Source: a phage. From it: a stretch of DNA of 64,000 nt. The notes beneath the pieces were generated by a model, which was given only the letters and a program-made list of their open reading frames with translations, made no database searches and was not told where the DNA came from. A program made the translations under genes and the position numbers. Positions within the stretch are counted from its first letter, which is position 1. Each line of letters opens with the position of its first letter. Positions 2,956-56,755 of the stretch are shown in pieces. The DNA is taken from sequence record PV730300.1; one strand, given 5' to 3'.

Positions 2956-4537
2956 GCCCGAAAAATGTTGATAGCTTTCGCCTATGAAAAACCGACACAG
3001 AGCAAAACTGAATAAATCACGGTATCAAGCTAATCAACCATCAAATGAATAACCATACACCCCAGGGCAAAAGGCCGTCAGAGAGCTATTTATAGCGTTT
3101 AAAATCGATCAACAGCCAACAACAAACCATCAAAAACACCCTTTTACCTCCTTTCTAGTGCAATGATAACCATTATCATCTACCCATGATTATCTATGCA
3201 ATATAAGCGCATAGTTATAGTGTTGATAATAGTTCGCAACAACTAACCAACAAACAACATAAAACAATAAGCAAACTAATCATAATCAAAGGAATAATAG
3301 CAAGATGATTGATAACGGCAAACAATTAAACCGTGATGAATAGTAAGCAAAATAACGATAACACGACAAAACAACCAACTAACGAACAATAACAAACGAA
3401 ACCATTAAAATAATAACTATTGCCATAATAGTAACTGAATGAAATCATTACAAAACAAATCATTCCCAGGATCATCATTAGCACGCTATGCCGGACACAT
3501 AGCGAGCTAATAATAAGCCAACTACACCCCAACAATCATAACCATCGGTGATGGTTATTTCTTGTTACTGCGTAGCTTGCAATAATTGCAAGCGTAATGA
3601 CGCTTACACTTATTGCGCTGGCTTATTATTAGCATTATATGTAATTACCAAGATCATAACATTAGCGCAATAACAATAATCATTGTAATGGTTACAATAT
3701 GAAATCATTAGCAAGATGAATAATTGCACGTAGCAACATGAGCGAATAGCGACAGGTTGCATAGTGTGCACATAATAGAATAAAAGTCAATAATTTTGGG
3801 GGCGAAATGTTACCGCCAGGGGCGGGAATGTTGAGCACTAAGAAAAGAGATAAACCTTAATCATGGGGGGCGTAAATATCCGAGGATTGCCAACGGCGAT
3901 CCGGTAGGATGTTGAGCAAGTTCTCTTAAACGTAAATAAAATCAGAAAATTCTTGATTTATTTTAGTTTTTATGTTAATAAACGTTTAAATAATAATCAT
4001 TCTCATATAGATAATAGTCTGCTTGTCATGAGCGGGATCGGTTGACATTGTTCCGTCATATGATGAAGTTGCCAAACCATTGATAAATAAGTGTTTGTGT
4101 GATTTATAATCAAATGGCCCACCTTGTCGCTATGTTGGTATGAGCCTTGCATAAGTCATTGAATACAAATGATAATTATTCTCATTCGCATGATATTTGG
4201 GAATTGTCGCTGCGTGGACCTGACGGCCCGAAAATTCGCGTTAAGCACTTCTTACGTATGCGCCATGATTTTTGCCATATTATATTGATTCTATTAGATA
4301 TTCTTGCCATGATTGCCATGAAACAGGGTGTCCCGAAATAATCTCTCCCCGTAGATATTTTGGGTTACTTTTTATACAAGAGTAGGGTGTCAAAAATAAT
4401 CGGTATATATGGGATAATTGATAGGAATCCCCTATGATAATTCGATTGTAATTCCCTGAGATTGATCGTATGATGTTGGTAGATGTTAGTGATTGATGAT
4501 TGCCATGAAAGATGGCTAACGATGAGAGGAGATTATC

Positions 4538-16326: not shown

Positions 16327-16746
16327 ATGTTAGGTAAGATCAAAGCTTTTTTCAAACGTATTATTGAAGGAAGTCCAACAGAAGGTGCATTAGGAAGATC
16401 TCTAACAGGAGAACCACTTGCCATAATTTCTATCAGTCGTCATGGTGGATATTCCATTCGACAAACACCTTTAGGTATAGAAGGTAGTATGCTTTCTTGG
16501 ACAATATCTCAAGTTGGTGATAACAGACTTGCAGCTATAGCATTGCTTCGTGGGGAGTATGACTATTGTTTATCAGCATCTTGTAAAAAGCACCTCATAG
16601 AGCACATTAGAGACAGAGTAGAAAGAGAAGGCGGATACTTCTTCGAAACTAAGAGAAACGAACAAGGAACTCTTGACTTCACTAAGGTTTACTGGGACAA
16701 TCATACTCGTCAAACTGTTGAACAACTTCTGGAGGAAAGATGTTAA
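16327..16746 (+). CDS. hypothetical protein (139 aa)
   Basis: ORF track; RBS AAGGGGGA. Confidence 0.5.
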   Translation: MLGKIKAFFKRIIEGSPTEGALGRSLTGEPLAIISISRHGGYSIRQTPLGIEGSMLSWTISQVGDNRLAAIALLRGEYDYCLSASCKKHLIEHIRDRVEREGGYFFETKRNEQGTLDFTKVYWDNHTRQTVEQLLEERC

Positions 16747-16949
16747 AAGCTTTTGCTATATACTCTACTGTAGGATTCTTTTATTGGATTATAGTTATTG
16801 CCGGATGTTGGTTAGGTTCTTGTGTTGTGATGGGAGAATGGTTAACATACAACGTATTTGAATGGGATGTAGTTTGTAGATCATTACTTGTTATATGGAC
16901 TGCTATTGTTTGTTGGATAACTGTTAGTCTAACATTAGATCTATATTGA
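16740..16949 (+). CDS. small membrane protein (2 predicted TM segments)
   Basis: ORF track; hydrophobic. Confidence 0.4.
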   Translation: MLKAFAIYSTVGFFYWIIVIAGCWLGSCVVMGEWLTYNVFEWDVVCRSLLVIWTAIVCWITVSLTLDLY

Positions 16950-17309
16950 TTAATAGATGGTAGATAGATGATCATAGTTTATCTACCTTCACTTACGTTT
17001 CATACCTCACTATCGTGAGTAACATGAAACATTATTATATAGAAATCTACTACTCGCTATCGCTCGTAAACATATGTTTAGGGTACCATATTTTTTTGAA
17101 AAAGTCAATGCTGATTCACCTATCAATTATCTGTTTAAGATAAGTCTTACCTATCAATCTAACTCTTAACTAGTATTGCACCTATAGTCAGACTATTCCT
17201 ATAGTTATTAACCCTCTTCTTCTATAGAATGTAATTAGATCCTTGACAAACTCACAAAACCTGTGTTACATTGTGTCTCACAGGTGAATAATACCAAACA
17301 GGAGGAAGA

Positions 17310-54090: not shown

Positions 54091-54284
54091 TTCTTACCTC
54101 CTTTGTTGTCAAAATAACTTACCAGAACATCGTGAACCACACACATGGCAAAAATCAGAACAATTGTTGTCAGGACTGGATTCTCACTAATTAGTGCTAT
54201 CATCTTTAACCACCTCCAATTGCCTTTCGAGTTTGACTTTGTTTGAGAACTGATAATGACACAACTTACATTGCATGTCAACAA
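54087..54284 (-). CDS. small membrane protein (start uncertain)
   Basis: ORF track; overlaps upstream ORF. Confidence 0.3.
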   Translation of the reverse strand: MLTCNVSCVIISSQTKSNSKGNWRWLKMIALISENPVLTTIVLIFAMCVVHDVLVSYFDNKGGKK

Positions 54285-54510
54285 TCTGATCGTGATTTAA
54301 CCCTACAATTTTAACTTCCTTTGCACCATCCCACTCCAAATACTCAAAGCCATCCAAATGATTACTCTTGTCCAACAGGAATGCTATCTGCTGCCATTCA
54401 ATCTGAATGTCATTTAAATGATATGCTGCACAGAAGATATCCTCATAGTAAAAGACGATCATTGTCATTGCTTCGTCCAGCACAACTACCTCTTGTCTTG
54501 TAAATCTCAT
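54187..54510 (-). CDS. hypothetical protein, first gene of leftward block
   Basis: ORF track; RBS AGGAGG. Confidence 0.45.
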   Translation of the reverse strand: MRFTRQEVVVLDEAMTMIVFYYEDIFCAAYHLNDIQIEWQQIAFLLDKSNHLDGFEYLEWDGAKEVKIVGLNHDQIVDMQCKLCHYQFSNKVKLERQLEVVKDDSTN

Positions 54511-54719
54511 TCTAGCCTCCTAAACGCGTCTCTGACGCACTTTTTATATATAAGATGATAAATCACCTTACCTAGTAAGTGAACTTGCTCTACGAGCCTC
54601 TTATGAAGCTTATGTTATAGGTTATACTATTGCTACCTGTTTAAGCAAGGTTTTTGCACACAGAAAATAATTTTTAATAAAACTCTTGACTTTTGTGTTC
54701 GAAGTATGCTACCCTAGAA

Positions 54720-54975
54720 ATCTATTAACGAGCGCAGCGAGTTAAGGTTTTAGGTTGTTGATGTAGTACTCTGTACTCAAGTACTGTACTCCGTACTAGA
54801 TTAATAATTATTAAATATTAATAATAAATAATTATTAGATCTAACAAACAGGTACAGTGTATCAGAACTGGTACGTACAGATCAACTTCTATCAATTAAA
54901 AATAAAATAATAAATTATTATAAATAATACTTGATCTATAGATCAGTATGAAGTACAGTACGGAACATCTTAACA
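54720..54975. promoter_or_regulatory. divergent control region with GTAC-rich imperfect inverted repeats flanking an AT-rich palindromic core
   Basis: Five GTACT repeats at 54764-54799, AATAATTATT palindromes, GTACAGTACGG arm at 54950-54965. Confidence 0.4.
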
Positions 54976-54991
54976 AGAATGGAGGTGTGCA

Positions 54992-55177
54992 ATGATTAGT
55001 GAGAATCCGTGCAAATGGCATCATGTGCCTATTAAAGATTGTATGTCTTGTAATCCACGTTCTATTTATAACATTGCATCTTATGATGATGACAATGTGT
55101 TAGACGATGATGAAGGCTGGGAGGATTTGGATTGGACTGGTTATGAAACCAAAAAGGATAAAATTATTCCTAGTTGA
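54992..55177 (+). CDS. hypothetical acidic protein
   Basis: ORF track; RBS GGAGG. Confidence 0.45.
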   Translation: MISENPCKWHHVPIKDCMSCNPRSIYNIASYDDDNVLDDDEGWEDLDWTGYETKKDKIIPS

Positions 55178-55214
55178 CTTAAGATATCCTTCGTGCTAAA
55201 CTAGAAGTGAGGAG

Positions 55215-55466
55215 ATGCCGATCACTCCCCATTTGGGGTTCGAAGGATATATGCAAAATAGCTTTTATTTTAGGTGCCGTGCTTGTAATAGGCATTTGAC
55301 AAACCACTCCAGACGTGATAAAAATGGAGTCATCAAGGAATCAGACCTCTGTTCTATTTGCACAGGTTTGGCTTTTGATGATAGTCCCGAAAGGGTTTAT
55401 CAGCATCAATGTATAACAGACGTTCTCGTGTCAAACTTGGTAGAGGACGAACAACTAACAGATTAG
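55215..55466 (+). CDS. hypothetical Cys-rich protein
   Basis: ORF track; CRACN...CSIC. Confidence 0.45.
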   Translation: MPITPHLGFEGYMQNSFYFRCRACNRHLTNHSRRDKNGVIKESDLCSICTGLAFDDSPERVYQHQCITDVLVSNLVEDEQLTD

Positions 55467-55474
55467 GAGGAACA

Positions 55475-55723
55475 ATGTCTCTATTAGAAAAACACGTGTT
55501 TGAAGATGGTAACGGCAATGCAGTTTTTCTTTTCCATCCAGAAAAATACACATCTGAAAACAATGGTACAACTTCTATTGTAATCACTAAAGATGTTAAA
55601 GTTATTGATTTCTTGGCTCTGATGCGAGAGATGGATCTTGAAATTAATACTTTTAACGCAGAAGCTTTGGTTGTTGCTCTTCTGGAAAAGAAAGATAGTG
55701 AAGAAGTAGCAGAATATGCTTAA
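55475..55723 (+). CDS. hypothetical protein
   Basis: Track ORF 55409..55723; ATG at 55475 after AGGAGGAACA. Confidence 0.45.
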   Translation: MSLLEKHVFEDGNGNAVFLFHPEKYTSENNGTTSIVITKDVKVIDFLALMREMDLEINTFNAEALVVALLEKKDSEEVAEYA

Positions 55724-55730
55724 ATAACTA

Positions 55731-55759
55731 TTGACAAACGTATCCTTCATATGTTAGGA
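55731..55759 (+). promoter_or_regulatory. promoter (ACTATTGACAA box) upstream of tRNA cluster
   Basis: TTGACA-N17-TTAGGA; box ACTATTGACAA repeated at 56318 and 57288. Confidence 0.45.
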
Positions 55760-55969
55760 TACGTTCATCAAGTGTGGTAACAGGGTCGTTGACTTTTGTT
55801 AAGAGGGGCTTGCACTGCGGTAGTGTTAGAGACTACTTCTTCAGAGGTTAGCTACCAAAGAGGAAAAGGAATAGTCTCGGCTCAAGAACTTTTACGCTGA
55901 AAGTTGGGCTTGGTCTTAGAGAATGTAGCGGTTCTCTACAATCGTCAGCGTCTCTGTTACCACATTTAT

Positions 55970-56044
55970 GGCCCTGTAGCTCAATGGGAGAGCTGTCGGC
56001 TCATAACCGATAGGTAGCTGGATCGAAACCAGCCAGGGCCACCA
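55970..56044 (+). tRNA. tRNA-Met (anticodon CAT; could be lysidine-modified Ile2)
   Basis: Manual cloverleaf: 7-bp acceptor GGCCCTG/CAGGGCC, loop CTCATAA, encoded CCA. Confidence 0.65.
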
Positions 56045-56667: not shown

Positions 56668-56755
56668 GGTGAGTTAATTCCGTAGGGGTAGCGGGGCAGA
56701 CTGTAAATCTGTTATCATTGCGATTCGGGTGGTTCGACTCCATCACTCACCACCA
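56668..56755 (+). tRNA. tRNA-Tyr (anticodon GTA), type II
   Basis: GCAGACTGTAAATCTG anticodon arm as in E. coli tRNA-Tyr; A73; CCA; D-arm atypical. Confidence 0.55.

Follow-up and report, generated by a model that had tools for sequence, protein, structure and literature searches.

We analysed a 64,000-nucleotide stretch of phage DNA (record PV730300.1; "the window") and in particular the 481 bp gap between the ATG of a leftward 107-aa open reading frame (ORF; 54510, minus strand) and the ATG of a rightward 61-aa ORF (54992, plus strand). This gap is a non-coding divergent promoter region that separates two opposed gene blocks. It contains a predicted leftward promoter, PL, two predicted rightward promoters, P1 and P2, and a cluster of GTAC sites and pure A/T blocks forming an imperfect inverted repeat. 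As judged from comparison with related genomes, this GTAC/AT inverted repeat is a genuine and statistically extreme feature, yet a young, clade-restricted and weakly constrained insertion. The part of the region that appears to be conserved under functional constraint is promoter P1 with the hairpin that follows it, one of three such modules per genome, and the strict conservation of this module is the region's strongest signal of function.

The most likely reading of these results, to which we give slightly less than an even chance, is that the gap is a divergent control region in which the insertion plays a modest modulatory role in the P1 transcript. PL would direct leftward transcription and P1, placed back-to-back with it, rightward transcription. 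Downstream of P1 come a hairpin whose CGAGCG-N-AGCGAG cap is invariant, ~270 nt of leader, P2 with its AT-rich upstream tract, a first small rightward gene and then the tRNA block. The insertion, which may have arisen by local inverted duplication and slippage, would lie within the transcribed P1 leader, where the two arms of the repeat may pair as a long AU-rich RNA helix or, in supercoiled DNA, be extruded as a cruciform. At most, the insertion would adjust how stable the P1 transcript is, how it is processed or how far it reads through, in comparison with the P2 transcript; it would be non-essential, and its GTAC sites would be eroded by the same selection that removes GTAC genome-wide. We rank this modulatory role, architecture included, above neutrality of the repeat, neutrality above an operator array, and an operator array above a replication origin.

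The 2.5 kb around the gap is 99.2-99.6% identical to ~65 sequenced members of Phapecoctavirus (99.6% for Mt1B1_P17, 536P1 and ESCO13), and by this measure the source phage is a Phapecoctavirus, i.e. a phAPEC8-like coliphage of the subfamily Stephanstirmvirinae. Members of this genus, which include phAPEC8, ESCO13, Mt1B1_P17 and 536P1, are ~150-kb myoviruses of E. coli. The complete 149-kb genome of 536P1 (99.6% identical) was used for whole-genome counts, an alignment of 13 phAPEC8-clade genomes for variation within the clade, and two outgroups for comparison beyond it: the phiWec179/188 clade, which is ~73% identical at the locus, and Justusliebigvirus, represented by the phi92-like phage A110a.

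Predicted promoters PL, P1 and P2

The leftward ORFs end with the ATG at 54510 and the first rightward ORF begins at 54992, in agreement with the original prediction, made from the letters of the window and its ORFs, that two gene blocks meet here. GC skew flips sign at the gap, and a small-ORF search of the gap yielded no credible ORF of at least 20 aa. That prediction also described the region as a divergent transcription switch, a view supported by the one leftward and two rightward promoters predicted here, whose order is kept across two genera.

PL (54555-54583, minus strand; TTCACT-N17-TATCAT) was identified with a consensus promoter scan, and its spacer, AGGTAAGGTGAT, is common to PL and the equivalent site in A110a. 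P1 (54664-54715, plus strand; TTGACT-N18-TGcTACCCT) emerged from a search for the promoter pattern typical of this phage, TTGAC(A/T)-N16-19-TAnnnT with a TG and an A/T-rich tract before it. It consists of an AT-rich upstream element (84% A/T), a -35 box TTGACT (54686-54691), an 18-nt spacer, a TG dinucleotide (54707-54708) and a -10 box TACCCT (54710-54715), and is unchanged in the 13 clade genomes except for three single-base spacer variants. P2 (54931-54959, plus strand; TTGATC-N17-TACAGT) was read from the sequence just upstream of a GGAGG (54981-54985) and the ATG of the 61-aa gene. It aligns with TTGACT-N18-TAGAGT in the phiWec clade and TTGACT-N17-TAGAGT in A110a, and its -10 box is overlapped by two GTAC sites. 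Directly 5' of the P2 -35 box lies a pure A/T block (54894-54929), the position of which is kept in all clades and which is a probable upstream promoter (UP) element or stretch of curved DNA.

All three promoters have the features of sigma-70 promoters, namely -35 and -10 boxes 16-18 bp apart with an optional TGn and UP element. The hexamers of P1 and P2 are kept in the phiWec clade and in A110a, and those of PL in A110a, despite diverged flanks, and the order PL, P1, AT-rich tract, P2 is kept in the phiWec179/188 clade and Justusliebigvirus. PL and P1 are back-to-back, ~100 bp apart, and the P1 leader extends for ~270 nt before P2. P1 and P2 resemble the T5 early promoters and the T7 A1-A3 promoters, with their AT-rich upstream tracts, in the consensus -35 box, the extended -10 box and the A/T-rich upstream elements, and the locus resembles the early regions of these phages in its tandem promoters ahead of the first early gene and its divergent layout at a block boundary. 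Unlike the T5 and T7 promoters, P1 has an unusual, strictly conserved -10 region, TGcTACCCT, and an invariant hairpin, coupled to this region, begins its transcript. In the phiWec179/188 clade an extra 70-aa leftward ORF (phiWec188, locus L004, 1684-1896) occupies the place at which the phAPEC8 clade has the PL region (54511-54640).

The gap appears as a long "empty" interval in ~70 sequenced phapecoctaviruses, several of which have been proposed for therapy. It could be annotated as a PL / P1 / P2 control region in preference to an origin or a generic "repeat_region".

A cluster of GTAC sites and an imperfect inverted repeat

Ten GTAC sites are present in the 196 bp between 54766 and 54961. 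Five of them belong to an array of GTACT units (54764-54799, plus strand) that is variable within the clade, the units starting at 54766, 54773, 54781, 54786 and 54793 (all within 54766-54797) and thus lying within a few bases of where they had been placed from the sequence alone. The AT-rich core with palindromes that had been described next to them was likewise recovered. A repeat search identified the pure A/T block 54800-54837 as a near-perfect palindrome (arms 54802-54819 and 54820-54837), in which the self-complementary 10-mer AATAATTATT occurs at 54803 and again at 54827. This block of 38 bp and that of 36 bp upstream of P2 (54894-54929) are the longest and second-longest pure A/T runs of the 536P1 genome, and the most AT-rich 150-bp window of that genome falls at the locus. 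The first A/T block is followed by the motif GATCTAACAAACAG (54838-54851, plus strand), present in all three clades (GATCTAACAGACA in A110a and GATCTTAAAGACA in phiWec), and by the central GTAC sites (54852-54878, plus strand), which are part of GGTACAG at 54851-54857 and GGTACGTACAG at 54870-54880.

Local alignment revealed an imperfect inverted repeat (54781-54962) with arms at 54781-54837 and 54906-54962 and a spacer of ~68 bp. The alignment of the left arm with the reverse complement of the right arm scored 40, a value reached by none of 500 shuffles. The claim that a right arm is an imperfect reverse complement of the left one was therefore sound, and only its position had to be corrected, from 54925-54970 to 54906-54962. 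The extended motif GTACAG occurs 12 times in the window and five times at the locus, twice on the minus strand (left arm) and three times on the plus strand to the right. Tandem Repeats Finder reported the AT block and passed over the GTACT units because their period is irregular. A different short tandem unit, AAGGTTTT (54744-54756, plus strand), was recognized in the 13-genome alignment directly after the P1 hairpin; its copy number varies among isolates, with extra units in anhysbys and Ro121lw, which indicates slippage in the spacer after the hairpin.

The density of GTAC at the locus contrasts with its rarity elsewhere. Under a second-order model GTAC is the most depleted of the 256 tetranucleotides in the window, with 61 observed versus 176 expected (observed/expected ratio, O/E, 0.35), and in the complete 536P1 genome 137 are observed versus 443 expected (O/E 0.31); depletion is mild in A110a (O/E 0.79). 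The four most depleted tetranucleotides in the window and 536P1 are GTAC, GGCC, CCGG and CTAG (O/E 0.35, 0.37, 0.44 and 0.51), and depletion of such sequences is the usual signature of restriction avoidance. The search for GTAC clusters elsewhere that had been proposed with the original prediction found none comparable in 536P1: the cluster of ten is unique, the next-best 200-bp window containing three. The Poisson probability of at least ten GTAC sites in 196 bp is ~2e-15 (~1e-12 after correction for scanning), and 0.02 if the sites are conservatively counted as four independent clusters.

Comparison with two outgroups

The phiWec clade retains P1, an identical 26-nt block downstream of it, the motif GATCT(A/T)A.A.ACA, the AT-rich tract and P2, and the GTACT array is absent from its homologous locus. 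In A110a the leftward genes are syntenic and the homologous gap measures 409 bp. It contains, in this order, PL, P1 (TTGACA...TGCTACCCT), a CGAGCGCAGCGAG hairpin, the GATCTAACAGACA motif, an AT-rich tract and P2, with no GTAC cluster and no first AT palindrome. Since the array and the first AT palindrome are missing in both outgroups, ~54760-54837 is by this comparison an insertion of ~75 bp confined to the phAPEC8 clade, with the GTACT array as its left and the A/T palindrome as its right part. The original prediction was to be abandoned if the repeats were not conserved in related phages and divergent transcripts were lacking; the first of these holds, the repeats being absent from phiWec179/188 and Justusliebigvirus.

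Read in inverted orientation, the insertion imperfectly resembles the sequence that runs from the AT tract across the P2 -10 box. This resemblance explains both the "arms" and why the GTACAG units are oriented as mirror images. A miniature inverted-repeat transposable element or other dispersed repeat was also considered and rejected: inverted arms are present, but the 149-kb genome contains no further copy.

Variation of the repeat within the phAPEC8 clade

All ten GTAC sites are present in eight of the 13 aligned genomes; nine remain in anhysbys and phAPEC8, eight in dw-ec and nieznany, and three in KKP3954. A 14-bp deletion has removed two units from dw-ec, and a 65-bp deletion in nieznany includes the central sites, which are mutated in anhysbys and KKP3954. 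Isolates with eroded or deleted sites are viable, and hence the GTAC units are not essential.

The losses in KKP3954 are concentrated in the GTAC sites themselves, with nine substitutions in the 40 GTAC columns versus four in the other 314 (Fisher p = 6e-7). Most are transitions that change GTAC to GTAT or ATAC and so retain RTAY and the spacing. Loss of GTAC extends to the rest of the genome: O/E is 0.22 in a 50-kb piece of KKP3954, and in the part that can be aligned with 536P1, 21 of the 42 sites of the latter are lost versus 14% expected at 3.8% divergence (p = 4e-8) and nine are new, a turnover ~3.5 times faster than expected. Loss at the array (seven of ten) does not differ significantly from the genome-wide loss (p = 0.31), which indicates that GTAC has been purged throughout the KKP3954 lineage and that the array was not protected. 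It is at this non-coding locus that the largest cluster of the most avoided tetranucleotide is found, and its selective loss by mutation in one lineage shows restriction avoidance at work; the cluster provides a convenient natural marker for GTAC-specific restriction pressure.

These data bear on the possibility that the GTAC/AT inverted repeat is without function, left behind by slippage and inverted duplication in a P1-P2 spacer free of constraint, and that it persists only because it is too young for the purge of GTAC to have removed it. Such neutrality would explain the absence of the repeat from both outgroups, the point losses and the 14-bp and 65-bp deletions in viable isolates, the match between array loss and genome-wide loss in KKP3954, and the similarly variable copy number of the adjoining AAGGTTTT unit. 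It fits less well with the ordered arrangement of the repeat, in which the GTACAG units face outward from the AT palindrome, with the fact that the KKP3954 changes are mostly RTAY-retaining transitions, and with the ten intact sites of the most avoided tetranucleotide in eight of 13 genomes. On balance we regard neutrality as possible but rather doubtful.

The P1 leader and a possible role of the insertion

The favoured reading, a modest modulatory role in the P1 transcript, finds some support in the predicted folding of the P1 leader, which is better than that of shuffled sequences (z = -3.56) and includes a long-range helix between the two arms. This helix is comparable to the RNase III hairpin R0.3 of T7, upstream of gene 0.3, in being a long imperfect helix in a leader between early promoters and the first gene. 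It differs from R0.3 in being AU-rich, clade-specific, without covariation support and only predicted.

Four observations weigh against this reading. First, of the changes in the long arm helix among the 13 genomes, one is compensatory and two preserve wobble pairing, with three pairs broken in KKP3954; RNA pairing of the arms is therefore not supported by covariation. Second, eight of the 13 genomes, from several continents, retain all ten GTAC sites despite strong genome-wide avoidance, so that the sites could be maintained for some reason. Third, the uniqueness of the locus in the genome, its extreme AT content and the global GC-skew minimum likewise fit an origin. Fourth, our search of the literature on promoters, origins and transcriptomes of Phapecoctavirus and Stephanstirmvirinae returned nothing relevant, and all promoters described here are predictions.

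The P1 promoter-hairpin module

P1 is followed by a conserved leader block (54722-54748, plus strand) containing a hairpin (54725-54745) in which a TTAAC/GTTAA stem closes GAGCG-C-AGCGA, a GCGNAGC mini-hairpin with putative tandem G.A flanks. The 26-nt block CTATTAACGAGCGCAGCGAGTTAAGG (54722-54747) is identical at 26 of 26 positions between the phAPEC8 and phiWec clades, which share ~73% identity overall, and the hairpin block is invariant across the 13 clade genomes. Both 536P1 and A110a have exactly three copies of the cap CGAGCG-N(1-2)-AGCGAG, each of which lies 12-15 nt downstream of a TTGAC(T/A)-N17/18-TGnTACCCT promoter. BLAST matches to the 61-nt module are restricted to Stephanstirmvirinae-type genomes (134 records, mostly in unannotated gaps).

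The stem bases around the invariant GAGCG-N-AGCGA are complementary in the different copies yet differ in sequence (UUAAC/GUUAA, UUAC/GUAG, UACC/GGUA and UGAC/GUUA). Among 15 distinct copies, 81.9% of the stem cells are paired versus at most 43% in slid controls, and the covariation score is 0.331 versus 0.174, with none of 500 shuffles reaching 0.331. The U.G pairs on the sense strand argue for folding of this strand, either as RNA or as non-template DNA.

The mini-hairpin core of P1, GCG-C-AGC, is located at 54732-54738, and the paralogues have the loops A, AT, GG, G and T. The P1 hairpin thus has, on one strand, the GC-G(N1-2)A-GC core that defines the GCGNAGC class, whose members GCG-N(1-2)-AGC are extremely stable and occur at the G4 complementary-strand origin, the N4 early promoters and RSF1010 ssiA (PMC13037366). 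It resembles the GCGNAGC / GCGNNAGC mini-hairpins of G4 ori(c), of the promoters of the N4 virion RNA polymerase and of RSF1010 ssiA in its core, its strand specificity and its position at an initiation region (PMC13037366), and its variable N or NN fits a GNA or GNNA loop. Unlike them, it is extended by putative tandem G.A pairs and a covarying stem and lies downstream of a sigma-70-type promoter. We know of no virion RNA polymerase in Stephanstirmvirinae-type phages. In being small, conserved, located right after an early promoter, present in few copies per genome and specific to the sense strand, the P1 hairpin is also reminiscent of boxB of the lambda nut sites and of putL and putR of HK022. 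It differs from these elements in that it has no sequence similarity to them and that no N-like or Nun-like gene was identified. The minus-strand string CGCTCGTTAATAG looks to us like a boxA, which we take to be mere resemblance.

We tentatively propose, as a possibility that we would not rate as probable, that the promoter-plus-hairpin module is an undescribed cis-regulatory element of Stephanstirmvirinae present three times per genome, the GTAC/AT repeat being a secondary modulator of one of the units. If so, the hairpin would fold immediately after initiation, either in the nascent RNA or on the non-template strand, and could single out three transcription units for particular handling, such as processive antitermination, protection of the 5' end or being recognized by a phage factor. 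For the study of gene regulation in this group, the strictly conserved TACCCT promoter with its mini-hairpin leader, found three times per genome in different genera, offers a well-delimited candidate regulatory element that is open to testing. The CGAGCG-N-AGCGAG sequence may also simply be a stable cap. A metagenome scan with TACCCTA-N-CGAGCGCAGCGAG returned 48 contigs, mostly with unrelated hairpins of the repetitive extragenic palindromic (REP) or terminator type having the cap alone in common, and this wide spread indicates a generic stable hairpin tip rather than homology.

Elsewhere the module heads ordinary leaders, being found ~105 nt upstream of gp208 in phi92 and ~135 nt upstream of a small gene at 74.7 kb in 536P1. 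The latter, third copy (locus L011, 24619-24790; 536P1 ~74.6-74.8 kb, outside the window) has a structured leader before the small gene, and a CCCCGAAGGG hairpin ahead of it spans the predicted start. The second copy is located at 17016-17108 of the window on the minus strand (TTGACT-N17-TGgTACCCT followed by ACGAGCGATAGCGAGT). With its downstream sequence (16960-17108) it opposes the surrounding rightward genes and points into the 3' end of a 69-aa hydrophobic ORF (16740-16949). The RNA predicted from 16960-17108 contains a hairpin GTTTCAT...ATGAAAC, replaced by ATTGC...GCAAT in phiWec188 and by TTCCTG...CAGGAA in phi92, and is a candidate antisense or small RNA with no match in Rfam. The phi92 version of this module runs in the same direction as gp208, the gene of a small membrane protein, and is its promoter.

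Marine IMG/VR contigs (locus L021, 2024-2161, and ~25 similar loci) contain two divergent TACCCTATCCCCCCC(A/T)ACGAGCG(A/G/C)AGCGAGTGGG copies ~100 bp apart. These TACCCTA-C7-hairpin pairs are located immediately upstream of genes for the terminase large subunit and the portal protein, and GCC/GGC swaps in a second hairpin are compensatory. The marine pairs may or may not be related to the coliphage module.

Operator array, replication origin and genome end as alternatives

The original prediction took the architecture of the repeat to suggest a binding-site array for a regulator or an origin. Our tests lent support to neither, given the absence of the array from the outgroups, the losses in five of 13 relatives, the unphased spacing, the lack of enrichment of DnaA or IHF sites and the confounded GC skew.

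As an operator array, the locus would bind a phage-encoded or host protein that recognizes approximately (A/G)GTACAG. This protein would occupy the left array, both central sites and those over the P2 -10 box, possibly with looping of the DNA, and its binding would repress P2 and block read-through from P1 as an early-to-middle switch. The concentration of GTACAG at the locus (five of the 12 units of the window) and the overlap of two GTAC sites with the P2 -10 box are in line with this, and short palindromic units every 5-8 bp recall tandem operators of the MetJ or TrpR type. Inverted duplication alone, though, explains the orientation pattern, the array is not conserved beyond the clade, KKP3954 has lost seven of ten sites, and ten neighbouring small proteins contain no DNA-binding domain according to Pfam and PHROGs. 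We therefore consider an operator array unlikely.

The spacings of the TrpR and LexA operators were not found either. The TrpR operator has the consensus GNACT-N8-AGTNC and the LexA box CTGT-N8-ACAG. GTACT is an instance of GNACT, and with its units every 5-8 bp the array is like MetJ metbox arrays and TrpR half-sites. Unlike in TrpR operators, inverted pairs with N8 are absent, the pairs being GTACT(54766)-N9-AGTAC(54780) and GTACT(54773)-N2-AGTAC; GAGTAC is absent from the region, and the array is unconserved. The nearest match to a LexA box, CTGTACTCAAGTACTG, ends in ACTG rather than ACAG.

A replication origin would work by transcription from P1 opening or priming the AT-rich element downstream, with the mini-hairpin as priming signal on the displaced strand and the repeat extruded as a cruciform. 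Several features are suggestive of this. The locus is unique in the genome and combines its most AT-rich 150 bp with its two longest A/T runs, the 38-bp and 36-bp pure A/T runs qualifying as unwinding elements. A conserved promoter lies immediately upstream, and the arrangement known from T4 oriF and T7, a promoter with a downstream unwinding element, is present, with an A/T block at +80 from P1 and one ~150 bp downstream in A110a. The global minimum of cumulative GC skew falls here (536P1 position 145883, ~54600 of the window) and likewise at the homologous A110a locus. GCGNAGC mini-hairpins are found at G4-type priming sites and RSF1010 ssiA (PMC13037366).

Other observations speak against an origin. 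The skew tracks the orientation of the genes, which fall into four blocks, and it dips to another minimum near 75 kb; its minimum at the locus is therefore not independent evidence. Both the array and the first AT block are confined to the clade and can in part be deleted, and the same promoter-hairpin module elsewhere drives ordinary small-gene leaders. The start-to-start spacings of the GTACT units (7, 8, 5 and 7 bp) are out of helical phase, iterons being spaced by ~11 or 22 bp. One match to the DnaA box TTWTNCACA was found in the region, with eight in the window versus 11 expected, and no match to the IHF consensus in the region. Searches with Pfam and PHROGs revealed no recognizable initiator gene among the neighbours. 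The locus is thus like T4 oriF and oriG (promoter plus downstream unwinding element) and the T7 primary origin (promoters plus AT-rich region) in that a promoter precedes the most easily melted DNA of the genome. It is unlike them in that the melted block nearest P1 is a clade-specific insertion and that the module recurs at ordinary-looking gene leaders. Overall, we judge an origin to be less probable still than an operator array.

A packaging site or physical genome end at this position is very improbable. The public record of nieznany is cut nearby, and in three records the AT blocks bear the annotation of a 55-nt "repeat_region", but the nieznany cut lies inside the downstream ORF and the record ends overlap as in an arbitrarily opened circle. 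For the relative BME3 a direct terminal repeat of 342 bp has been reported (PMC12210895). It maps to A110a 95366-95707 and, weakly (70% over 111 nt), to 4151-4252 of the window, ~50 kb away, and by this homology the physical genome end of the source phage is probably located near 4151-4252. Three strong TTGACA promoters are present in 1.4 kb at 307-1707 of the window, each with a GC-rich hairpin (e.g. GGCGG...CCGCC) ~10 nt past the -10 box; this trio is possibly an immediate-early promoter cluster adjoining the genome end.

Flanking genes and RNA searches

The first gene of the leftward block (54187-54510, minus strand; 107 aa) matches PHROG 14390 and has a homologue at the equivalent position in A110a; the first rightward gene (54992-55177, plus strand; 61 aa) matches PHROG 26411. 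Both are of unknown function, as are all of the ten flanking small proteins compared with Pfam and PHROGs, in which no DNA-binding or replication domain was detected. Synteny of the 61-aa ORF into Vequintavirinae was uninformative, a weak Seunavirus homologue being located within a co-directional block. A terminator-like scan on the plus strand matched a GC hairpin, GCGTCAGAGACGC on the minus strand, at 54526-54538 (position read from the sequence). The T-run of this hairpin is on the plus strand; on the minus strand the hairpin is located in the 5' leader directly upstream of the Shine-Dalgarno sequence of the first leftward gene, where it would act as a leader element of the leftward mRNA.

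With Rfam 15 at a permissive threshold, the region, the paralogous locus and the whole window yielded tRNAs alone. In 54300-56000 nothing was found at E <= 5 except two chance snoRNA matches, and in the window no models other than tRNA pass the gathering threshold. The tRNA block begins at 55970, 3' of the first rightward gene. An eleventh tRNA, unreported by ARAGORN, was recognized at 56668-56752 by the Rfam tRNA model with a score of 39 bits.

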